This document shows positions 2,066 to 13,512 of a DNA stretch of 13,512 nt, one piece after another; within the stretch, counting starts at the first letter, position 1; each line of letters begins with the position of its first letter. The notes beneath the pieces were generated by a model, which did not search any database, was not told where the DNA came from, and saw only the letters and a program-made list of their open reading frames with translations. Both the position numbers and the translations under genes were made by a program. Source of the DNA: a virus (taxonomy: Duplodnaviria; Heunggongvirae; Uroviricota; Caudoviricetes); the IMG/VR virus record IMGVR_UViG_2693429524_000013; one strand, 5' to 3'.

Positions 2066-3112
2066 TTATTTAGCCTTGGCTTTTGCCAGAGCAGCGGCGG
2101 CGGAGTTACTAACACTCACTTTAACCACAACTTCAGGCATCATGTTCATGAAAGCATAAGAGGATTCAATGAAGATTTCTCGTTTACCTCTGGACTCTTC
2201 CATATACATGAAAGCTTCACGTGCAGCGCCGTTTGCAAGCTTCAGGTTGCGAGCGCAAGGGCCGAAAAATTGAGTATAAACGCCCACCATATCGCCTAAC
2301 GCATGTGGCTGGAATTGTGGGACCAGATAAGCAGTATTCTCTGGCAGACTATCCATTTGCACCACACGCAGGGCTAAGCCCGGAATGCGGAAGGTCGGGA
2401 AGCCCGGCAGAATATCCTCAGGGAACATCAGGCCTTTGTCAGTGATATTTTGATTGCCGAACAACAGCACCTTACGGAGCAGTTCATCAGTCTGAATTGC
2501 AGCAAAGAGTTCAGCACGGCAGAACAGGGTGAAACCACGCAGAGCACGAACGACACCACGCTGTTTAACCTTGCTCAGTGCAACCAGGTCCTGCAGCTGT
2601 TTAAGGATATCTTTAGCTAAATCCACTTCTGAAGTGGTTTGCTGTGCGCCCAGCAGTTCGCACACATTCAGTTCTTTACCCTTGGTGAGGATAATTTTGT
2701 TCTCAAAGAGAGCAAGCTGGCGTGCTTCTTCGTGGGTCTGGCGTAAGCCTTCGCCAAGCTGAATAACACGACGAGCGGTTACAGACTCTAAATTCTCTTC
2801 GGAATCTTTGCCCGGAACGCGGATACCCTGCCAGTCAGAAGGATAAATAGCACTTGATGCGGCAGTGAATGCCATATCACCCGTGCCCGTTTCACGCTCA
2901 TCTGCGGTAATGGTCGCCATCTGTTCACCGTAGCGAGGATACTGACCGAAAGCAGATTGTTTCACCTGGCGAACTTTGTCATATTCAAATTTAAAGGTAT
3001 TGCACAGAGCAGTAGTGTTGAAGATATCCATTGCTGAAATAATCTGGTTATCCAGCGGGATGTCTTTAATCAGACCACACAGATCGCGAACTTCGAATTC
3101 TTTCTTAGCCAT
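2066..3112 (-). CDS. major capsid protein, lambda gpE-like family (348 aa from ATG 3112)
   Basis: AAGGAGG SD lies 6 nt upstream of ATG 3112; the track start at 3118 is a TTG. Size (~350 aa), position directly after a decoration-protein gene, and overall sequence character match the phage major capsid protein E family. A strong terminator lies downstream. Confidence 0.8.
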   Translation of the reverse strand: MAKKEFEVRDLCGLIKDIPLDNQIISAMDIFNTTALCNTFKFEYDKVRQVKQSAFGQYPRYGEQMATITADERETGTGDMAFTAASSAIYPSDWQGIRVPGKDSEENLESVTARRVIQLGEGLRQTHEEARQLALFENKIILTKGKELNVCELLGAQQTTSEVDLAKDILKQLQDLVALSKVKQRGVVRALRGFTLFCRAELFAAIQTDELLRKVLLFGNQNITDKGLMFPEDILPGFPTFRIPGLALRVVQMDSLPENTAYLVPQFQPHALGDMVGVYTQFFGPCARNLKLANGAAREAFMYMEESRGKREIFIESSYAFMNMMPEVVVKVSVSNSAAAALAKAKAK

Positions 3113-3123
3113 CTTCAACCTCC

Positions 3124-3459
3124 TTATTGTGCAACACGCAAATCGCCATTGCTGGCAGCGATAACAGCGGCTAAGCCGTCTTTATCCACGTAGGCCGGAT
3201 TGATGTAGCAACCTTTGTTCGCAACAACGATAAAAGCGTCACCAACCTCAGCACGTTCTACAACCAGCAGCGGAGTTTTATCTGTGTGCGTTGCTTTAAC
3301 GAAGGTCTCAACCTCGCCAGCCTCAGTAACCACAACAACAGTGCCAGCCGGAATCTCAGCTTTAACTTTGTTTTTAATCTCAACGTCGCGAATACTAAAT
3401 TGCTCATCTGCGGCGTATGAAATGATGTGTCCGCGTGTGCGGATAGTCATATCTCTCAT
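3124..3459 (-). CDS. head decoration (capsid-stabilising) protein, gpD-like / DUF2190-like (111 aa)
   Basis: 111 aa beta-rich protein encoded immediately upstream of the gpE-like capsid gene, matching the lambda D-E order. AGGTGA SD precedes ATG 3459. The segment LLVVERAEVGDAFIVVANKGCYINPAYV resembles decoration-protein cores. Confidence 0.6.
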   Translation of the reverse strand: MRDMTIRTRGHIISYAADEQFSIRDVEIKNKVKAEIPAGTVVVVTEAGEVETFVKATHTDKTPLLVVERAEVGDAFIVVANKGCYINPAYVDKDGLAAVIAASNGDLRVAQ

Positions 3460-3584
3460 TTGATCACCTGCGATTTAAATTAACTCCCCTCAAAGAGTTC
3501 CGGTATAACCTCTCAAACCGCGACAGGCTCGGGCCGAAAAGTTATGCCGGAAATCTAAAGGGAAATTGATACAAGGAAAGGGAG

Positions 3585-3614
3585 ATAGCCCCGCACCGTC
3601 CAAGCGGGGGCTAT
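3585..3614 (-). terminator. GC-rich stem-loop in the leader of the capsid operon (possible attenuator)
   Basis: ATAGCCCCGC (3585-3594) pairs with GCGGGGGCTAT (3604-3614) with one bulge. On the minus strand it is followed by CUCCCUUUCCUUG, which is only moderately U-rich. Confidence 0.3.
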
Positions 3615-3787
3615 TCCATATGGGGAAAACCAACAACAGTTGGCTGATAGTTCACAGTATGGTTACGGTTACTAGAGAGCACTATCACGAAAGGCACTCC
3701 CCCGAATCAGTTCAGGCTGCGGTCACATCAGCGGGGAAATACCTTTCGGGATAGCTACCCACACAGAAAACCCGCAAAAGAAAACTG

Positions 3788-3796
3788 TGTGGATAA
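3788..3796. promoter_or_regulatory. consensus DnaA box (TGTGGATAA = TTATCCACA)
   Basis: Exact 9/9 match to the R-type DnaA box. It is a single copy in the non-coding leader. Confidence 0.3.
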
Positions 3797-3943
3797 CTAG
3801 CCCAATAGGAGAATTAATCGACCACTCAACGATGATCAGGGTAGTGTTATTTATAAGGCGGCACCGCTACCTGGTCGCCGTTACTTTGGAGGAAAATACG
3901 GCAAATCAAGATCTTCTCACATTGATATTGACGCCATATGTAT

Positions 3944-3972
3944 ATTATATCAGTATTTACTCACATTGTCAA
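3944..3972 (-). promoter_or_regulatory. perfect-consensus sigma70 promoter firing leftward toward the capsid operon
   Basis: The minus strand reads TTGACA (3972-3967), a 17-nt spacer, then TATAAT (3949-3944), with a TGn extended -10 (ctgaTATAAT). The -35 context is TTGACAAT, as in the three rightward promoters. Confidence 0.75.
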
Positions 3973-4070
3973 CACCCTGATTATATAAATTCTAATAATT
4001 AGCGTAGTAACGGTATTTTCAGACCTCTATCAATCCCATCAATACGTCACCCCACCCTTTAGACATATAC

Positions 4071-4101
4071 ATCTATCACTACTTTATAAAGCCTGATAGA
4101 T
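4071..4101. promoter_or_regulatory. operator-like inverted repeat ATCTATCA-N15-TGATAGAT
   Basis: 8-bp perfect arms at 4071-4078 and 4094-4101 with a central TTTATAAA. It is part of a set of five CTATCA/TGATAG hexamers between 4027 and 4222. Confidence 0.35.
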
Positions 4102-4195
4102 ATCCGTTGATCCTGATCAAGGTTTTCCGGGGATTTACCCGGTTATAGTTCGAATCAAGGAAGGGGAGCATTGATAGCACCCAAACCGAACAAAC

Positions 4196-4213
4196 AAATC
4201 AACTTCTCGCAAA
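4196..4213 (+). repeat. 18-nt motif AAATCAACTTCTCGCAAA, copy 1
   Basis: Identical to 4739-4756. It ends exactly 11 nt before ATG 4225. Confidence 0.85.
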
Positions 4214-4224
4214 AGGTGATAGTT

Positions 4225-4347
4225 ATGGGTATCAAGAACAGTGCCAGCGCATGGCAAAAGGCCAGGTTTCATCACCCACACATTGTTAAGGCAATTGAGG
4301 TGGTTGGAGTGTTAGCCCTGATGTTAGCTCTGTGTGTGGAGGTGTGA
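4225..4347 (+). CDS. 40-aa small membrane peptide (MGIKNSASAWQKARFHHPHIVKAIEVVGVLALMLALCVEV)
   Basis: Not in the ORF track because it is under 60 aa. AGGTGA SD lies 7 nt upstream. It has a hydrophobic C-terminal helix. Its stop is followed 1 nt later by another SD-led ATG (4349, 22 codons). Confidence 0.45.
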   Translation: MGIKNSASAWQKARFHHPHIVKAIEVVGVLALMLALCVEV

Positions 4348-4449
4348 GATGGGCAAAGGAGGCAAAGCATTTTTTAATAGGTCTGGCTATCCTGGATGTT
4401 CTACTAATCATGATTGAGCGGAGTTTATGAACAGCATTGAGAGGAGTTT

Positions 4450-4710
4450 ATGACGGGGGCTAAAGATATCAGGAGACTGAGGGAAGAGCTGATAGCTGAA
4501 ATTAAAGCTAAGGCAAAGCAAATGGAGATAGCCGCACAAATGGATGTAGCGGAACAGATGTACAAGATGGTTGAAGAGGGAACACCACGACAGGTTATCG
4601 CTAAAACCTTCGGTGTGGGGATCGCCACCGTGCACAGAAGGCTGAAAGCCTATGCCGACTACCACAACATTGAGAGAGGGGAGGATGGGAGATTTAAGAA
4701 GAATAAATAG
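4450..4710 (+). CDS. small coiled-coil plus C-terminal HTH DNA-binding protein (86 aa)
   Basis: GAGGAG SD is present. The segment TPRQVIAKTFGVGIATVHRRLKAY is a resolvase/sigma-region-4-style HTH. Its ATG overlaps the stop of an 8-codon uORF (4427-4453). GGAGTTTATGA is duplicated at 4420-4430 and 4443-4453. Confidence 0.75.
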   Translation: MTGAKDIRRLREELIAEIKAKAKQMEIAAQMDVAEQMYKMVEEGTPRQVIAKTFGVGIATVHRRLKAYADYHNIERGEDGRFKKNK

Positions 4711-4738
4711 TGTGAACAGTCCAATAGGTTATTAACTT

Positions 4739-4756
4739 AAATCAACTTCTCGCAAA
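4739..4756 (+). repeat. 18-nt motif AAATCAACTTCTCGCAAA, copy 2
   Basis: Identical to 4196-4213. It ends exactly 11 nt before ATG 4768. Confidence 0.85.
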
Positions 4757-4767
4757 GGGGTACCACT

Positions 4768-5289
4768 ATGTTATTCCAGAAAGACAAAGAATCAGTAAAT
4801 AAAAGGCTTTTTAAAGAACTGGTAAAAATGTTCTTTCAGTACACTGCAGCGTTTTTGATAGCCGGGCCTTGGTTAATGGCTATCTGTTTTTACCCTGCTA
4901 CCTTGTTTATTGGCAGTAGCAAGTTCGGCGATGGCCCGTTTCATGTGGATATTGGTTTTATAGATTCTCTCCTGATCCGTCCTATAAATGCTGTTCTCAA
5001 TGCTTTCTACTTCCCAACTAGTCTAGAGGGGTGGGCGGTAACCTGGGGTGTTTTAGGCTTAGCATATGTATATTGGTTGGTTGGCTTTTTGTGGGGTGCA
5101 ATCTGTGCTCTCCTCGATATTGATACAGGATCAAGCCGTAGGAGTAGTGGTAATAATAGCGGAGCGGGTGTATATGCACACGTAGGTACCAGAGGGGTAA
5201 GTATCACCGCAGGTACCCGATTCGCTGGCGGCTGGCTGAGTATAGGCAAACGCGGCGTTAGTTGGAGAAAAAGCAAAAAACTGTTCTGA
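4768..5289 (+). CDS. integral membrane protein (173 aa) with a Gly/Ser/Arg-rich C-terminal tail reminiscent of DUF4236
   Basis: Two long hydrophobic segments are present: FFQYTAAFLIAGPWLMAICFYPATLFI and WAVTWGVLGLAYVYWLVGFLWGAICALL. The tail GTRGVSITAGTRFAGGWLSIGKRGVSWRK resembles DUF4236. A clean terminator follows. Confidence 0.75.
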   Translation: MLFQKDKESVNKRLFKELVKMFFQYTAAFLIAGPWLMAICFYPATLFIGSSKFGDGPFHVDIGFIDSLLIRPINAVLNAFYFPTSLEGWAVTWGVLGLAYVYWLVGFLWGAICALLDIDTGSSRRSSGNNSGAGVYAHVGTRGVSITAGTRFAGGWLSIGKRGVSWRKSKKLF

Positions 5290-5297
5290 CCTACCAG

Positions 5298-5318
5298 GGG
5301 GCCATCACGGCCCCTTTT
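5298..5318 (+). terminator. rho-independent terminator of the accessory cassette
   Basis: GGGGCC (5298-5303), loop ATCAC, GGCCCC (5309-5314), then TTTT. Confidence 0.8.
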
Positions 5319-5342
5319 CTATTTCCAGTCGCTATAGCTCCT

Positions 5343-5414
5343 GAGTAATTCCACTCCCTGAGGTCGTGATCAATTCCACACCCTACCCCCTGATCAATTA
5401 ACCCCTATTTAATG
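5343..5414. repeat. three ~24-bp direct repeats (TGATCAATTCCAC-type)
   Basis: AATTCCAC occurs at 5347-5354 and 5372-5379. TGATCAATT occurs at 5367-5375 and 5391-5399. A related 17-mer CCCCTGATCA(A/T)TTAACC occurs at 5387-5403 and 6284-6300. Confidence 0.6.
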
Positions 5415-5446
5415 GGTATTTAATGCCTATTTATTGATTTAATCCG
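5406..5446. repeat. AT-rich 11-bp phased repeats (TATTTAATG x3-4), resembling a DNA-unwinding element
   Basis: TATTTAATG at 5406-5414 and 5417-5425, TATTTATTG at 5428-5436, ATTTAATCC at 5438-5446. The period is 11 bp. Confidence 0.55.
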
Positions 5447-5514
5447 TTTTATGCCACAACCGCCCGGTTGACAGAGTAAGAGAGAGGGTGTAACCCTTTT
5501 TCGTAATACTAATG

Positions 5515-5530
5515 AAATCAATAAGTTAGC
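5515..5530 (+). repeat. 16-nt motif AAATCAATAAGTTAGC, copy 1 (matches IHF consensus WATCAANNNNTTR)
   Basis: Identical 16-mer at 13259-13274. The core AATCAATAAGTTA fits WATCAA-N4-TTR. Confidence 0.6.
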
Positions 5531-5584
5531 TTAATAGGCCTTTTCTCTATTTTTGTCAAATTTAACATACCCTAAAAAACTGCA

Positions 5585-5618
5585 AAATCTGGCTGCAAGA
5601 TTATCTGCAGCTGGATTT
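5585..5618 (+). other. 34-nt imperfect hairpin
   Basis: AAATCTGGCTGCA pairs with TGCAGCTGGATTT. There are 13 pairs, including two G-T pairs that are wobble only if the plus strand is read as RNA. Confidence 0.4.
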
Positions 5619-6520
5619 CTTACACCTCATTTTGTGGTATCACCCTGACTAGTTTGTGCATAAATTGAACAGTTTTTAACATTTCCTCTTCACCTGGTAA
5701 CCACACAAAAAGCTAAAAACGAGGCACAGATAATCTTAGAGGCCTATTTTCTTGTTATCACTCTGGAAACGTCGTAGAAGTGATTTTGATGAAAGGCGAC
5801 CTACCCTATTACACCCCCATTTTTTGTTATCACAATTGCATCCTGTGTGGCTATATGGCTATGTGCTGAAAGCGGTCTCGGGTGTGGGTGTCAGAAATAT
5901 CCATTAGCGGTATTTGAGCTTATGGGTAACTCGTCTGAGGTGCCAGGCAGGCGCTCCCCTACCTCCCTTTTTTCTTCTAACAATTCTCAAATATCACACC
6001 ACTGCCCACCACGTTGCTATTATGTTAATTCTTAAGCTTTGCTGTATGTTGTGCACATTATTTATTCAGGTGGCTGTACGTAAATTCTGTGCCCACTGAT
6101 CATGATTTTTAAATCAGATTTTGTAGTGCGGTTTCTTAGTGCTGATAAGATCTATTATGTTAAATGCAATTTTCCCAACCCTTCAAATCAATGACTTACA
6201 TGTAAGCATGCACTAACACCACACACAGCACATTAGACGTATAGATGGCTATATCCCACATATTTGATTGTTTTGTAGTCATTCCCCTGATCATTTAACC
6301 AGTATAGTTTGTTATCTGCAGACCACAAAATCGGAATTTACATCTGATTAACATAATCTGTTAGCATGATCACCATTACCCACACAACAATAACCCCATG
6401 TAAGCCTCTTCAGGCAATTTATCGGCGTGTTGGTGTGAACAGTCTTTCATGTTCTTTATGTATCAGTTGTCCTGTGTGGTGATTTGGTGGACTGCCCCAG
6501 GGGCCATACTTATGATGCCC

Positions 6521-6559
6521 GGTCAACATAGCTGTTGATAAAATCAACGGGTGTTGACC
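6521..6559. promoter_or_regulatory. twin palindromic operator-like sites
   Basis: TCAACA-tagc-TGTTGA (6523-6538) and TCAAC-gggt-GTTGA (6544-6557), with centres 20 bp apart. Outer arms GGTCAACA and TGTTGACC also pair. Confidence 0.45.
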
Positions 6560-6632
6560 TGCATATTTCCCACACATGAGAGGAAATCAGAGCAAAGAGA
6601 GAGGAGAGAGGTTTGTTAGTCACATATGGTGA

Positions 6633-6664
6633 TTTGAGCTCATCTCAAACCTTCTACGAAGGCC
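6633..6664 (+). repeat. two-hairpin module, copy A
   Basis: TTTGAG-ctcat-CTCAAA (6633-6649) abuts CCTTC-TAC-GAAGG (6650-6662), followed by CC. The 5' flank is TCACATATG. Confidence 0.65.
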
Positions 6665-6719
6665 TTTGCTAGTCAAAATCAAGTCACATTAGAGTCAAAT
6701 CAGATGCAATCAATCCCCC

Positions 6720-7051
6720 ACCTGTTGGGATTTCCCACATGTTCAACCATACACAGGAGCTAACCTGTTGGGATTTCCTACAACCCCTTTCAGTCATACT
6801 CAGGCACCACACCCCGGTAAATATTTCCCTACTACCCCGGAGAATTTCTCCGCACTACCTGTAAAGAATTTTCACACCTGTGTGTTTATACAATCATACT
6901 CTCCTGTTTTGCAGTCATTGCACCCATGATACACAGCCCTAACCTGTAAAATATTTTTACTACCCCGCCAATAATACGGCCCATACCTGTAAAATATTTT
7001 TACTACTACCTGTCAAAATCTTTTACTACTACCTGTAAAAATATTTGACAC
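6720..7051 (+). repeat. array of nine ~21-23 bp iterons, consensus ACCTGTAAAATATTTTTAC(TAC); candidate replication origin or centromere
   Basis: Units start at 6720, 6763, 6813, 6836, 6857, 6942, 6985, 7008 and 7031. The last three abut with exact 23-bp phasing. Each unit has an internal dyad. Confidence 0.8.
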
Positions 7052-7080
7052 TAATAGATAAAGTAATAGACCACACAATA

Positions 7081-7118
7081 GATCCCCCTAACCCCCCAGG
7101 GGGGAATGGGGAGGGATC
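7081..7118. repeat. G/C palindrome GATCCC...CCCCCC-A-GGGGGG...GGGATC followed by G-tracts
   Basis: C6-A-G6 lies at 7092-7104. Outer arms are GATCCC (7081-7086) and GGGATC (7113-7118). Downstream G-tracts (G6, G4, G3, G4) fit a loose G-quadruplex pattern. Confidence 0.6.
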
Positions 7119-7167
7119 AGAGAGTGGGGAAGGTTTTCTAAGGGAAAAGCTTAACCCACAAATGAAA

Positions 7168-7196
7168 GCCTAAAGAGCATTAGCGACTCTTTAGGC
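7168..7196 (-). terminator. 10-bp perfect hairpin, terminator-like on the minus strand
   Basis: GCCTAAAGAG (7168-7177) pairs with CTCTTTAGGC (7187-7196) across a 9-nt loop. The minus strand continues UUUCAUUUG. There is no U run on the plus side. Confidence 0.45.
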
Positions 7197-7208
7197 AATC
7201 TGTGTGTG

Positions 7209-7243
7209 GGGTGACAATGTATTCCATACATGACACGTCACCC
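7209..7243. other. nested hairpin
   Basis: Outer stem GGGTGAC (7209-7215) pairs with GTCACCC (7237-7243). The inner hairpin is ATGTAT-tcc-ATACAT (7217-7231). Confidence 0.5.
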
Positions 7244-7271
7244 TGCTCACATGTGTGGTCCACTTCGTGGA

Positions 7272-7310
7272 TTTGAGTTCACTCCGTAACTCAAACCCTC
7301 TACGAGGGCC
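7272..7310 (+). repeat. two-hairpin module, copy B (compensatory changes relative to copy A)
   Basis: TTTGAGTT-cactccgt-AACTCAAA (7272-7295) abuts CCCTC-TAC-GAGGG (7296-7308), followed by CC. It is preceded by CCAC-ttc-GTGG (7260-7270) and the flank TCACATGTG. Confidence 0.65.
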
Positions 7311-7356
7311 TTGTGTGGGGAGCGTAGTGCGATAGCACGTAGCTATATAATGTGGA

Positions 7357-7390
7357 GTCCGGATAAGAGACTTCTGTTTCCAATCCGGAC
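7357..7390. other. 8-bp perfect hairpin with an 18-nt loop
   Basis: GTCCGGAT (7357-7364) pairs with ATCCGGAC (7383-7390). Confidence 0.5.
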
Positions 7391-7410
7391 CGTTTAAGCG
7401 AGTGGTTTCT

Positions 7411-7436
7411 CGCGCGCGTGCACGCACACATATATA
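7411..7436. repeat. 26-nt perfectly alternating pyrimidine/purine tract (Z-DNA-prone)
   Basis: CGCGCGCGTGCACGCACACATATATA. It contains the 10-bp palindrome GCGTGCACGC (7416-7425). Confidence 0.7.
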
Positions 7437-7461
7437 AAGGATACACTCATAAATCGAAAAT

Positions 7462-7480
7462 AAGGCCCCTAAATGGCCTT
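7462..7480 (-). terminator. hairpin, terminator-like on the minus strand
   Basis: AAGGCC-cctaaat-GGCCTT. The minus strand continues AUUUUCGAUUU. Confidence 0.4.
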
Positions 7481-7616
7481 CTGGCTGCATTAACTAGTTT
7501 GAGTAGTGTAATTGCATTACCTGATGCTCAAATCGCGTTGTAGGGCCTCTTATGATGTTTGAGTTTAACACCCTCCAAAGTTTTAACAAAAAGTGCTCTC
7601 CCTCCATTGTGGGCCA

Positions 7617-7646
7617 TTGACAATCTTATTGCATAAATGCTATAAG
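7617..7646 (+). promoter_or_regulatory. strong sigma70 promoter P1 (rightward)
   Basis: TTGACA (7617-7622), 18-nt spacer, TATAAG (7641-7646), with TGc extended -10. The -35 context is TTGACAAT. Confidence 0.6.
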
Positions 7647-7744
7647 TTATTCTGTTTTTGACACGGTAGGGGACATTAATAATGCTTACCCCTTTGCTGT
7701 GGACTTGTTTGTACCTATAGCTCGCCTAAATGATAATGATTCCC

Positions 7745-7774
7745 ATTGACAATTGGTTGTCAATATGATAAGAT
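7745..7774 (+). promoter_or_regulatory. sigma70 promoter P2 (rightward) with an overlapping 20-bp palindromic operator
   Basis: TTGACA (7746-7751), 17-nt spacer, TAAGAT (7769-7774), with TGa extended -10. The operator ATTGACAA-ttgg-TTGTCAAT spans 7745-7764. Confidence 0.6.
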
Positions 7775-7936
7775 TATAGATAGTGGGAGAAACAGATCCG
7801 GAGGTCAACGTGGAACTGAGCGACGCTATAGCGATCATCAACCTGGCTGTAATGTGGTGCGGTGTTGCCTACATAGCCGGAGTAACTGCAATCGACAACC
7901 TTGAAGAAAAAATGATAGATAAATACAAAAAGATTG

Positions 7937-7965
7937 TTGACAATCTCGCAAATAGCTGATAAAAT
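7937..7965 (+). promoter_or_regulatory. strong sigma70 promoter P3 (rightward)
   Basis: TTGACA (7937-7942), 17-nt spacer, TAAAAT (7960-7965), with TGa extended -10. The spacer contains TCTCGCAAA (7944-7952), the core of the 18-nt motif. Confidence 0.7.
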
Positions 7966-8016
7966 ATAAAGCATAGGGTAATTCTCATCATAGTGAATTT
8001 TCCTTTAATGAACTGG

Positions 8017-8044
8017 CGGGAGCTATTAGTTCCCGTTTCTTTTT
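8017..8044 (+). terminator. rho-independent terminator/attenuator between P3 and the first early gene
   Basis: CGGGA (8017-8021), 9-nt loop, TCCCG (8031-8035), then TTTCTTTTT. It lies ~50-70 nt downstream of the predicted P3 start and 44 nt upstream of ATG 8088. Confidence 0.6.
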
Positions 8045-8087
8045 AACCCTATATCGCACAGGCGGTGAGCTAACAGGAGATTGAATC

Positions 8088-8297
8088 ATGGCTAAAACCG
8101 GACCGATAAGCCAGCTGGTAAACTGGACTACTGACGAAATCGTCGAGAACGTGCTTAAAGGTAACTTTCGCAAAACTTCCGTTTATGCATTTATTCGAAA
8201 ACATAAAGGAGAATATCCACACATTGAAGCGGCAATAGAAAGATTAAACTTTATTAAACTTGAGCGCCAGCTGGAAAGATATAAACATCTGATTTAA
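8088..8297 (+). CDS. small early protein (69 aa), possible Cro/excisionase-like DNA-binding protein
   Basis: AGGAG SD lies 8 nt upstream. It is the first gene after the tandem promoters. The function call is weak. Confidence 0.7.
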   Translation: MAKTGPISQLVNWTTDEIVENVLKGNFRKTSVYAFIRKHKGEYPHIEAAIERLNFIKLERQLERYKHLI

Positions 8298-8317
8298 TAA
8301 ATAATTGTGAGGGAATT

Positions 8318-9202
8318 ATGGCAAACAATAAACTGGGGGCACATTTCACCCCCATTTTTAAACGTTTTATCAAGTATAATTTTGAAAATCCAATTGCAAA
8401 AACTACAACAGGCAAAGAGAGATTTAATTTAAATGCGACGGAATTGATAATTTACGGGGAAATGGTTGGCTTTCATTTAAACGGCAAAGAAATATTCATC
8501 TCGGAGCAGACCTTAGCAGATGATTGGGATTTTTCAAGACCAACGATTATTAAAGCTATTAAATCTCTAGTAAATGCTGGGATTATTTCTAAAGATAACC
8601 GGAAAGGCAAATCTAACATTTACAAACTGTTAATTACACCTGAGCAGTTTGATAAAATGTGCGATGAGCAGGGTATTAAAACCTTAGACAGTGTGGGAGA
8701 CAGCAAAGAGGCACCTGCTACACAGGCCCAAGATAATCAACAGGAAGCCCCAAAACAAGCCACACAGCAGCCTGAAAAGCCCGAGGCAATGCAATCCCCT
8801 TCCCAACCTAAAAAAGAACACAGAGAACGCCGTAGAGACGCTGGCAAACGTGAAATAGATGAGCACGGTTATCCGATTCTGACAAGCGATGAAATGAATG
8901 CCAGATATAAAGTAATTCAGGCCGCATTTAAAGATCAGAAGAGAATTAAATTATCTGAATTGCGTGATACATTTTACGGGCCGGAGGTGATGGATAAAAT
9001 TAAAGGCACTATTCCTGATAAAATCTGGAAAGAGGAAGATTACTGGCACCTGACAGAGCAGGCCCTTAAGGTAGCTCAACACGTGGTTAAAAGAGGCAAA
9101 TCAATTATTATTGATTCTATTAGTCATGGCTATGATGCACCGAAAGAAAGGTTGTGGAACAACTGCAAGCTTGTAAAAGGCGAATTGACAATTACAAAAT
9201 AA
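8318..9202 (+). CDS. replication initiator candidate: N-terminal winged-HTH (lambda O / replisome-organiser-like), Gln/Pro-rich linker, C-terminal domain (294 aa)
   Basis: The N-terminal segment ISEQTLADDWDFSRPTIIKAIKSLVNAGIISKDNRKGKSNIYKL is a classic wHTH of phage/plasmid initiators. A low-complexity linker APATQAQDNQQEAPKQATQQPEKPEAMQSPSQPKK follows. The three-part architecture resembles lambda O. Confidence 0.6.
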   Translation: MANNKLGAHFTPIFKRFIKYNFENPIAKTTTGKERFNLNATELIIYGEMVGFHLNGKEIFISEQTLADDWDFSRPTIIKAIKSLVNAGIISKDNRKGKSNIYKLLITPEQFDKMCDEQGIKTLDSVGDSKEAPATQAQDNQQEAPKQATQQPEKPEAMQSPSQPKKEHRERRRDAGKREIDEHGYPILTSDEMNARYKVIQAAFKDQKRIKLSELRDTFYGPEVMDKIKGTIPDKIWKEEDYWHLTEQALKVAQHVVKRGKSIIIDSISHGYDAPKERLWNNCKLVKGELTITK

Positions 9203-9478: not shown

Positions 9479-9964
9479 ATGTTCAAATCTGATCTTTCTG
9501 ATTCCCAATTTGAAAAACTGGTAGCACTGCAGAAATACCTCCCCAGTGATGATCAACCAACACGACAGGCCAAACACTTATTAGTCGAGGGCTTTACCCC
9601 TGAATTCGTTGCGGAATATACAGGCGTTAAACTTGAGAAAGTCCAAAAACTATATAATGAGTCCTGGAATCCACGGTGTCGAGTTCCCCTCAGTGTCTAT
9701 AACGACATAGATAGAGATAAAAATGTCTTCGAAGATCGCCGCCGCAAATCTCTTTTAATGTGGAATTGTGGGATGAATATTGAAGAGATAGCAAAAGAAT
9801 TAAAAGTAACCTGCTTTCATATATGGGGCTTGTTGAGCGACCTCCTGCCACGTAAGGAGCTTAATCAACGTTTGCCTAAGCCCGGTAGTCGTGCTTATCG
9901 CGAATTTATATTCATCTACCGCCGCCATAGCAATAAAGTCCGGAAAGCAATGCAGCGCAAATAG
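9479..9964 (+). CDS. double-HTH (sigma-region-4 / LuxR-like repeats) DNA-binding protein (161 aa)
   Basis: GGAG SD is present. Two HTH-like modules are seen: LLVEGFTPEFVAEYTGVKLEKVQKLY and LLMWNCGMNIEEIAKELKVTCFHIWGLL. The C-terminus is basic. Confidence 0.7.
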   Translation: MFKSDLSDSQFEKLVALQKYLPSDDQPTRQAKHLLVEGFTPEFVAEYTGVKLEKVQKLYNESWNPRCRVPLSVYNDIDRDKNVFEDRRRKSLLMWNCGMNIEEIAKELKVTCFHIWGLLSDLLPRKELNQRLPKPGSRAYREFIFIYRRHSNKVRKAMQRK

Positions 9965-13466: not shown

Positions 13467-13512
13467 CAATTGTGATGATCCGACCTTTGAGGCGGGTCCG
13501 GTGCCCAGGGGG

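Follow-up and report, generated by a model that had tools for sequence, protein, structure and literature searches.

A hairpin-rich region beside the putative replication origin of a rare Escherichia coli plasmid family: one RNA gene or a composite of DNA elements?

Does a dense run of hairpins beside a plasmid origin have to be an RNA gene? We ask this of positions 7081-7520 of IMG/VR virus record IMGVR_UViG_2693429524_000013 (Duplodnaviria; Heunggongvirae; Uroviricota; Caudoviricetes), a stretch of 13,512 nucleotides that was analysed as a whole and is called the window in the following. The window looks like a complete member of a rare family of circular, extrachromosomal Escherichia coli plasmids of about 13.5 kb, which resembles a phage satellite. 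A first-pass annotation had proposed that these 440 nt, a series of back-to-back hairpins bounded by two terminator-like structures on the minus strand, form one structured non-coding RNA (ncRNA). We arrive at another reading, to which we assign a probability of roughly 0.55: 7081-7520 would be a composite non-coding region between the replication origin and the promoter of the rep operon, and not one RNA gene. Its parts evolve independently of each other, and one of them, a module of three adjacent hairpins, apparently is a dispersed, mobile palindromic element.

About 40 elements of the family were retrieved for comparison. The mosaic analysis covered about 35 relatives and the cassette decomposition 34-37, while module counts, the typing of iterons and Rep proteins, the forms of block C and the contig junctions were assessed in 27 elements or assemblies.

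Hairpins and folding at 7081-7520

All ten structures listed in the first-pass annotation are present when the sequence is read directly:

7081-7118, GC-rich palindrome GATCCC...C6-A-G6...GGGATC, with two bounding GATC sites and four G-runs
7168-7196, minus strand, 10-bp hairpin (10-11 bp; 11 pairs in the terminator scan) followed by TTTCATTTGT, just right of the origin; t2
7209-7243, nested hairpin GGGTGAC[AATGTAT-tcc-ATACAT]GACACGTCACCC, delimited by cassette decomposition; cassette A
7260-7270, hairpin CCAC-ttc-GTGG
7272-7310, module B as first listed
7327-7338, hairpin GTGC-gata-GCAC
7357-7390, hairpin GTCCGGAT/ATCCGGAC
7411-7436, alternating purine/pyrimidine tract CGCGCGCGTGCACGCACACATATATA, read directly and in relatives
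7462-7480, minus strand, hairpin AAGGCC-N7-GGCCTT with ATTTTCGATTT (6 pairs and tail ATTTTCGATT in the terminator scan); t1
7508-7520, hairpin GTAAT-tgc-ATTAC

Their density is non-random. On the plus strand, 7081-7520 has a minimum free energy (MFE) of -170.4 kcal/mol, compared with -129.8 +/- 7.1 kcal/mol for dinucleotide-shuffled controls (z -5.68; 0 of 100 shuffles as good); on the minus strand, the corresponding values are -156.1 kcal/mol and a shuffle mean of -120.9 kcal/mol (z -5.61; again no shuffle as good). Since z is equal on the two strands, folding energy is uninformative as a guide to the strand. In a 150-nt sliding scan of 3001-8775, the strongest z-scores fall at 7051-7425 (-6.0, -5.9, -3.9, -4.1), and the only other signals lie near 3600-3825 and 3976-4125. 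The claim that the two bounding hairpins are terminator-like on the minus strand only is borne out by a consensus scan (7196-7168 and 7480-7462): as judged by sequence, t1 and t2 have the GC-containing stem and U-rich tail of intrinsic terminators on that strand alone, and both hairpins are kept in relatives.

A conserved structured ncRNA would retain the same helices in relatives and pass through G·U intermediates on one strand. The whole of 7081-7520 does not do so, whereas 7455-7545 does so weakly on the minus strand. The covariance-model search proposed in the first-pass annotation returned nothing, with 0 matches to Rfam 15 in the whole window at the gathering threshold and 0 at E <= 1 in 6600-7900 on both strands; ARAGORN found no tRNA or tmRNA. 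The minus-strand open reading frame (ORF) at 7191-7490 does exist and encodes 99 aa, but it is not a conserved gene, because it spans positions at which relatives differ by whole cassettes and by unrelated alternative forms; we therefore reject it as protein-coding. Type III antitoxin repeats or an array like CRISPR (clustered regularly interspaced short palindromic repeats) were rejected as well, as the only shared unit is the 7-9-nt motif TGTGTGGG (TGTGTGG(G)), the cassettes are mutually different and no toxin or cas ORF is adjacent. The same applies to a hammerhead-like three-helix ribozyme, for which the hairpins show no conserved core nucleotides between them and no Rfam match.

A mosaic array and a dispersed three-hairpin module

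The comparison of relatives resolves the region into parts with different histories. Between t2 and a block that we call C, each relative carries between zero and three short perfect-palindrome cassettes, every one of them ending in TGTGTGGG. The elements of this part of the window are:

7203-7211, plus strand, first copy of the punctuation motif TGTGTGGGG; more copies at 7252-7258 and 7312-7320, with cassettes inserted between copies
7259-7308, cassette B: TCCAC-ttc-GTGGA; TTTGAGTT-N8-AACTCAAA; CCCTC-tac-GAGGG (covariance model R1, 40.1 bits, E 1e-6)
7321-7420, block C in form C1, position-specific, with hairpins at 7321-7344, 7357-7390 and 7398-7413

Element L007 has no cassette at all (...AATATG TGTGTGGG TCCGGCG...), L001 has one, the window has A and B, and L048 has three. 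Their order varies by element, and recombinant cassettes combine hairpins from different subtypes. Cassette A occurs in about 20 of the 27 elements, is absent from the rest, and is found in this array only. Block C, in turn, exists in two unrelated forms: C2 replaces C1 in 9 of the 27 elements, and whereas C1 is structured (folding z -3.4 and -4.2), C2 is not (z +0.2 and -0.5), which rejects a fold common to both. The tract at 7411-7436 keeps its alternating purine/pyrimidine character in relatives despite a different sequence. Given that cassettes are gained, lost and reordered and that block C comes in two unrelated forms, a single 440-nt RNA is not what evolution preserves here. Of the ncRNA proposed in the first-pass annotation, the dense and significant hairpins thus stand, but their unity does not. 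In the composite reading, 7203-7320 would be a hypervariable landing pad, in which short perfect DNA palindromes are inserted between copies of TGTGTGGG, and 7321-7440 would be a two-form block followed by the alternating tract. Farther right, the segment 7613-7700 is an optional module with a strong promoter-like site, TTGACA-18-TATAAG (7619-7648, plus strand), and a GGGG/CCCC hairpin; the window and many relatives carry it, whereas L003, L006, L007 and L042 lack it cleanly.

Cassette B differs from the other parts in that it is found far beyond the array. Its variants consist of three adjacent perfect hairpins, with about 5 bp and a 3-nt loop, about 7 bp and a 3-4-nt loop, and 3-5 bp and a 3-4-nt loop, respectively; in the window, the middle hairpin has 8 bp and an 8-nt loop. 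A strict descriptor of this architecture finds 61 units in the 27 elements and 0 in shuffled copies. Model R1, which was built from eight module copies, locates copies at many map positions; in the window it matches 7259-7308, 6620-6662 (E 6e-4) and, weakly, 1572-1608. Several sites are filled in some elements and empty in others:

6620-6662, second three-hairpin copy, 600 nt to the left and outside 7081-7520 (also direct repeat D4): a 53-nt insertion (6623-6675) with flanks TTTGTTAGTCA (6612-6622) and TTTGCTAGTCA (6665-6675); also filled in L022, L025, L029, L048 and L056, empty in most relatives
After the tape-measure stop codon: filled in L026 and L002, empty in the window; flank CTAAT / CTGAT
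5' untranslated region of rep: filled in L054, empty in the window; flank GAATA (approximate)
Adjoining TGTGGG at 7608: filled in L058, empty in the window; flank TGTGG / TTTGGG
Array beside t2: filled in L001 and others, empty in L007; flank TGTGTGGG

The duplications are imperfect copies of the upstream flank and measure 5, 6, 8-9 or 11 nt. Furthermore, the leaders of L002 and L041 carry the module in inverted orientation, flanked by the reverse complement of the motif, and the Rep protein P0092 (L047 3269-3305) contains an in-frame 48-nt copy with a 6-nt flank duplication in a disordered linker, which adds 16 residues (HPEGLASLNSPRECG-type) that are absent from seven other Rep proteins aligned with it.

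The stems of these copies are maintained by paired changes. In the seed alignment, 99.3% of the cells are paired and both sides have changed in 15 of 17 pairs; for 56 distinct rows aligned to the model, the corresponding figures are 97.5% of 922 cells and 16 of 17 pairs. These values are high partly by construction, since structure was the criterion for choosing the copies and a site can be represented by both of its strands. On four of five measures applied to the 56 rows, the observed value was matched by 4 of 500 shuffles at most, and slid controls were at most 45% paired, but the count of further pair types was no higher than in shuffles. The diversity of the stem sequences and the zero count in shuffled copies are not products of selection by structure. 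G·U pairs occupy 13 of the 922 cells (about 1%), so that the stems are almost purely Watson-Crick.

Copies at non-homologous sites, filled and empty alleles and both orientations are the distribution of a dispersed mobile repeat, and Watson-Crick-only stems together with both orientations and tolerance inside an ORF argue for a spreading DNA palindrome and not for an RNA domain. While the insertion polymorphism is directly visible among the relatives, the mechanism can only be suggested. The cassette, of about 43 nt, would spread as DNA by duplicative insertion with an imperfect duplication of 5-11 nt of the upstream flank, and its stems would stay Watson-Crick because the structure, most likely a hairpin in single-stranded DNA, is what is copied or recognised. 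As variable duplication lengths fit no classical transposase, microhomology-mediated copying by recombination or template switching is an alternative route. With the odds against it, we also float the idea that the module stands for a kind of tiny, non-autonomous mobile DNA that has not been described before, which would be identified by the architecture of its hairpins and not by its sequence and would insert with variable flank duplications, often at or near TGTGTGG and sometimes in frame; it might be mobilised in trans by an enzyme of the helper phage or the host acting on single-stranded DNA, with the array as its preferred landing pad and TGTGTGG as a binding or nicking site of the same machinery.

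The TGTGTGG motif itself is the most over-represented 7-mer of the window (TGTGTGG/CCACACA, 20 copies against 2.4 expected), and 15 of its 20 copies are intergenic:

TGTGTGG sites, examples of the 20: 1424, 3075, 3759, 3786, 4276, 4333, 5701, 6219, 6380, 6570
Further TGTGTGG sites: 7071, 7203, 7252, 7312, 10906, 13219

The relatives have 12-22 copies each, and the map positions are conserved. Most elements have them mainly on the top strand for about 4.4 kb rightward from the origin and mainly on the bottom strand elsewhere, with copies in the opposite orientation on both sides of the origin; two inverted pairs within the second non-coding region are among these. Apart from a following G there is no extended consensus. 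The motif borders the cassettes and, elsewhere, often lies 15-45 nt from module copies. It is not simply a DnaA box: the perfect box TTATCCACA (the reverse complement of 3788-3796) coincides with one copy only, and the others share just CCACA with it. The window contains no Chi sites, and TGTGTGG resembles polar motifs of the stoperator kind or of the kind of KOPS (FtsK-orienting polar sequences).

The putative origin flank, a possible leftward transcript and the alternatives

On its left, the hairpin region adjoins what we take, from anatomy and conservation, to be an origin of the lambda type:

6720-7049, no strand: iteron array of the origin (direct-repeat families D1, D2 and D8), with iterons starting at 6720 and 6763 (ACCTGTTGGGATTTCC type) and at 6856, 6941, 6984, 7007 and 7030 (TACCTGTAAAATATTTTTAC type)
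7045-7080: AT-rich spacer that adjoins the last iteron and contains three AATAGA repeats, read directly
7124-7159: imperfect hairpin GTGGGGAAGGTTTTCTAAGGGAAAAGCTTAACCCAC, present in the MFE structures of both strands

The iterons are 20-23 bp long and have internal dyad symmetry, and the last three follow each other at 23-bp spacing. Five iteron sequence types track five types of the Rep N-terminal domain across the 27 elements, a covariation that is the signature of initiator/iteron pairs. The Rep protein (8318-9202) matches several PHROG 'replication initiation O-like' families (E 1e-8 to 1e-10) as well as Pfam HTH_36. In lambdoid origins, the iterons are imperfect inverted repeats, four to seven in number, and are flanked by an AT-rich tract (PMC7466680); here, too, an O-like initiator goes together with dyad iterons that match the initiator type, and the adjoining AT-rich spacer, which starts with CTAATAGATAAA in all relatives, is a candidate DNA-unwinding region. 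Unlike the lambda origin, which lies inside the O gene, the iterons are about 1.3 kb upstream of the start of rep at 8318, with the hairpin region and a promoter/operator in between. No gene for a P-like loader was recognised. Lambda has a palindrome to the right of its AT-rich region, and here the GC palindrome 7081-7118 follows the AT-rich spacer.

The block 7051-7200, on the right of the iterons, is almost invariant in 35 leader variants apart from homopolymer lengths and the loop of t2, even where the Rep proteins are only about 40-50% identical. Within it, the palindrome 7081-7118 changes in hardly more than the length of its C and G runs, the hairpin 7124-7159, found at this position only, is invariant in nearly all relatives and replaced in L002 and L041, and the stem of t2 does not vary. 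By isolate, the run lengths are C5-C10 and G5-G6 in the palindrome (7092-7104) and G2-G7 after TGTGTGG, which could be true slippage or sequencing error. We infer that 7045-7200 is the conserved right flank of the origin: the O-like Rep would bind the palindromic iterons, the AT-rich spacer, GC palindrome and imperfect hairpin would follow, and t2 would stop leftward transcription from entering the origin.

At the other end, 7455-7545 is probably the 3' end of a leftward non-coding transcript, as judged by G·U asymmetry and consensus matches in the sequence. The features concerned, besides t1, are:

7506-7522, minus strand: hairpin of 5 bp with a 3-nt loop (alignment pair 27-37)
7736-7774: divergent promoter-like sites around the palindrome TTGACAATTGGTTGTCAA (7746-7763), from the promoter scan, conserved in all relatives

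On the minus strand, the stem pairs of t1 vary between A-U and G·U and between C-G and U·G, and the second pair of the hairpin 7506-7522 is U-A in the window, U·G in 19 sequences and C-G in 9; on the plus strand, the G·U pairs at both hairpins become C·A mismatches, and the t1 hairpin is not predicted. Likewise, when 35 variants of 7415-7545 are aligned, RNAalifold predicts 20 pairs (-3.86) for the minus strand and 5 pairs (-1.34) for the plus strand. The tail of t1 is not T-rich in some relatives. The promoter-like sites comprise P_rep (plus strand; TTGACA-17-TAAGAT with TG), a strong match to a rightward promoter of the rep operon, and P_left (minus strand, 7763-7736; TTGACA-16-AATCAT), which matches the consensus at 10 of 12 positions. 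The first-pass annotation had found no convincing leftward promoter; P_left is a conserved candidate, yet the scan around it gave 10 matches where shuffles lead one to expect 8.0. The palindrome 7746-7763 is perfect and overlaps the -35 boxes of both sites; as it occurs in two family forms independent of Rep type, it may well be the operator of a conserved regulator distinct from Rep. The minus-strand-only G·U pairs and the leftward promoter-like site make a leftward RNA of about 270 nt plausible, which would run from 7763-7736 to t1, while t2 would catch read-through ahead of the origin. The leftward transcription suspected in the first-pass annotation is in this sense plausible for one end of the region, but not as a single unit covering all of it. 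Antisense pairing of this RNA with the translation start regions of the rep operon was rejected, as their complementarity is no better than in shuffles (z +0.2 to +1.7).

How far could a transcript account for the remaining hairpins? A rather unlikely extension of the same idea is that one or more structured ncRNAs start at 7763-7736, part of them ending at t1 and part reading through to t2 (about 560 nt), in which the hairpins, set apart by C/A-rich CCCCACACA linkers, would act as RNA domains in copy-number control, immunity or helper sensing. The terminator-like hairpins on the minus strand at both ends, of which t2 is invariant, the G·U pairs at t1 and 7506-7522, a variant of cassette A in L004 whose A·C on the plus strand is G·U on the minus strand, the purine-rich (GNA-type) loops of the minus-strand hairpins, the strong folding scores and the fixed orientation and position of cassettes A and C and of the hairpin 7124-7159 all agree with it. 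What sits between t1 and t2, however, ranges from zero to three cassettes plus either form of block C, of which C2 lacks structure; copies of module B, whose stems are Watson-Crick only, also turn up in reverse orientation, at other places and within the rep ORF; and the equal z on both strands, the lack of an Rfam family, the shuffle-level complementarity to the rep operon and a promoter match that shuffles equal in number speak against it as well. If the hairpins act as DNA, they could also be cis-acting structures for replication or stability, namely cruciforms, single-strand hairpins, G-quadruplex or Z-DNA that form under negative supercoiling or on the lagging-strand template and provide priming (ssi-like) signals or a gyrase/topology site like pSC101 par. 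Perfect Watson-Crick palindromes with 3-4-nt loops immediately beside the iterons and AT-rich region, four G-runs in the invariant block, an alternating tract that outlasts sequence change and a TGTGTGG motif that tends to opposite strands on either side of the origin, with both orientations on each side, would suit such a role. We nevertheless consider it improbable for the region as a whole, as stems of 4-8 bp are short for cruciform extrusion, the same module occurs at sites unrelated to the origin, including a coding region, and L007, with neither an A nor a B cassette, indicates that both are dispensable. For the constant block alone, a packaging signal comes into question: a cos or pac site at 7045-7200 for the terminase of a helper phage would explain why this block stays near-invariant while the iterons and Rep, down to 40-50% identity, diverge, and it would fit the GC-rich, partially two-fold symmetric sequence and an element whose ten largest ORFs, when scanned, showed no recognisable terminase. 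Yet the junctions of the 27 assemblies are scattered, with many k-mer overlaps and none at 7081-7118, which rejects a cos at that palindrome; another GC-rich site, at the window ends, lies within 11 nt of another contig's end; and the block directly adjoins the iterons, as a component of the origin would. Taken together, this makes a packaging function highly improbable.

The composite reading has its own weak points, which count against it. The copies behind the covariation figures had been picked with a perfect-hairpin descriptor or a model derived from it, and a site can enter with both of its strands; the duplicated flanks are short and imperfect and differ in length; and no candidate for the mobilising enzyme was found in the element, in which no transposase-like match was seen among the ten largest ORFs scanned. 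The G·U asymmetry at the leftward end depends on three or four independent substitutions only. A function at the level of a transcript would predict parts that are fixed in place and orientation, and cassettes A and C and the invariant block behave in this way, being confined to this region and never inverted; an RNA role for any part of the region is possible.

The plasmid family and its place among known elements

The window was matched only by circular E. coli plasmids of 13.2-13.7 kb (7 of 5426 complete genomes) and by no chromosome. A search with the Rep protein gave 101 clusters of 38-100% identity, almost all on contigs of 13.3-14.4 kb from E. coli, Shigella and E. albertii; the k-mer overlaps at the ends of many contigs and the scattered junctions of the 27 assemblies point to circular molecules. 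The genes include those for a major capsid protein, a Dit-like tail protein, a tail completion protein, a tape measure protein, small helix-turn-helix (HTH) proteins (4450-4710, 8088-8297 and 9479-9964) and Rep, while a scan of the ten largest window ORFs recognised neither a terminase nor a portal. Gene order is constant across the roughly 40 retrieved elements, which all share a gene-free stretch of about 2.3-2.8 kb (window 5290-8088); in total, about 28% of the window is non-coding. Outside the plasmid family, we found 0 matches in 50,697 phage records in near or distant mode and 0 on E. coli chromosomes, pattern scans of IMG/VR gave chance-level matches only, and full-text literature searches returned no description of the family or of the three-hairpin module.

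Some further observations concern the rest of the element. In plasmid p3RM10740 (NZ_CP043822.1, 39,610 bp; L007 region), the non-coding region is matched at three places, consistent with a head-to-tail trimer of a unit of about 13.2 kb whose total size is what a helper-sized capsid would hold. The left part of the gene-free stretch, 5290-6620, is 1.3 kb without an ORF, is 88-92% identical in relatives with very different Rep proteins and is not unusual in structure; it contains repeats resembling the consensus of integration host factor (IHF), AAATCAATAAGTTA (5515) and AAATCAATGACTTA (6185). Its left neighbour, the ORF 4768-5289, has a conserved start and a length of 173, 176, 195, 233, 236 or 239 aa among relatives. 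A second gene-free region of about 1 kb (3460-4450) separates the leftward capsid operon from a rightward HTH gene. It is strongly structured on the minus strand (3601-3825, z to -5.5; 3976-4125, z -4.0) and carries two inverted TGTGTGG pairs (3759/3786 and 4276/4333), and three-hairpin modules are present at the equivalent place in relatives and absent there in the window. Finally, the window has a GC-rich end (13490-13512 joined to 1-10: GAGGCGGGTCCGGTGCCCAGGGGG|GCAGTG), 11 nt from the contig end of L051, which could be a cos-like end or a weak point of assembly.

Among known systems, the module is closest in kind to two groups of palindromic elements, from which it differs in size, architecture, flank duplication and distribution. 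The repetitive extragenic palindromes (REP) of enterobacteria, which cluster in mosaic arrays (BIME, bacterial interspersed mosaic elements), are chromosomal and tied to RAYT (REP-associated tyrosine) transposases; each consists of one imperfect hairpin, about 35 nt long, with a conserved GTAG-type head. The module shares with them dispersed extragenic palindromes, variable mosaic arrays, conserved linker motifs and stems kept by compensatory change; it differs in having three adjacent perfect hairpins (about 43 nt), in its restriction to one plasmid family, in its flank duplications and in its one occurrence within an ORF. No conserved GT(A/G)G head was found, and none of the ten largest ORFs scanned gave a transposase-like match, RAYT included, host RAYTs lying outside this search. 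The Rickettsia palindromic elements (RPE), of about 100-400 bp, are tolerated when they land in frame in protein-coding genes. MITEs (miniature inverted-repeat transposable elements), also of about 100-400 bp, have terminal inverted repeats and target duplications of fixed length (PMC10969869). Like these two, the module is a small, non-autonomous palindromic insertion that is present or absent among relatives and tolerated in frame; at about 43-53 nt it is shorter, lacks terminal inverted repeats and has variable duplications of 5-11 nt.

Other likenesses concern the surroundings of the module. The par locus of pSC101, a 375-bp region of three related segments with a role in gyrase action and supercoiling, is likewise a protein-free cis region rich in inverted repeats beside an iteron origin, a likeness drawn by description only; unlike it, the region here is partly dispensable in relatives. 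ColE1 RNA I and R1 CopA are antisense, or countertranscript, RNAs that control replication; the putative leftward RNA resembles them as a short structured RNA opposite to rep and near the origin with a putative intrinsic terminator, but has neither overlap nor significant complementarity to the rep mRNA from P_rep. The stoperators of cluster A mycobacteriophages are 13 bp long and bound by a known repressor. TGTGTGG is similarly a short asymmetric sequence that recurs 15-22 times on a small genome, mainly between genes, with conserved positions and a biased orientation, yet the motif measures 7-9 bp and also borders cassettes.

For the reading of such loci, the main consequence is that dense and significant hairpins beside a plasmid origin need not mean an RNA gene: comparison splits them into DNA of the origin, passenger palindromes and a probable terminator. 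The host element is of interest as a rare extrachromosomal plasmid with capsid and tail genes and an orientation-biased, over-represented 7-mer. If the module is truly mobile, it would be among the smallest insertion elements seen in bacteria, and these 13.5-kb plasmids, with many natural filled and empty sites and one insertion in an essential gene, offer a tractable setting for studying how DNA defined by its structure spreads.

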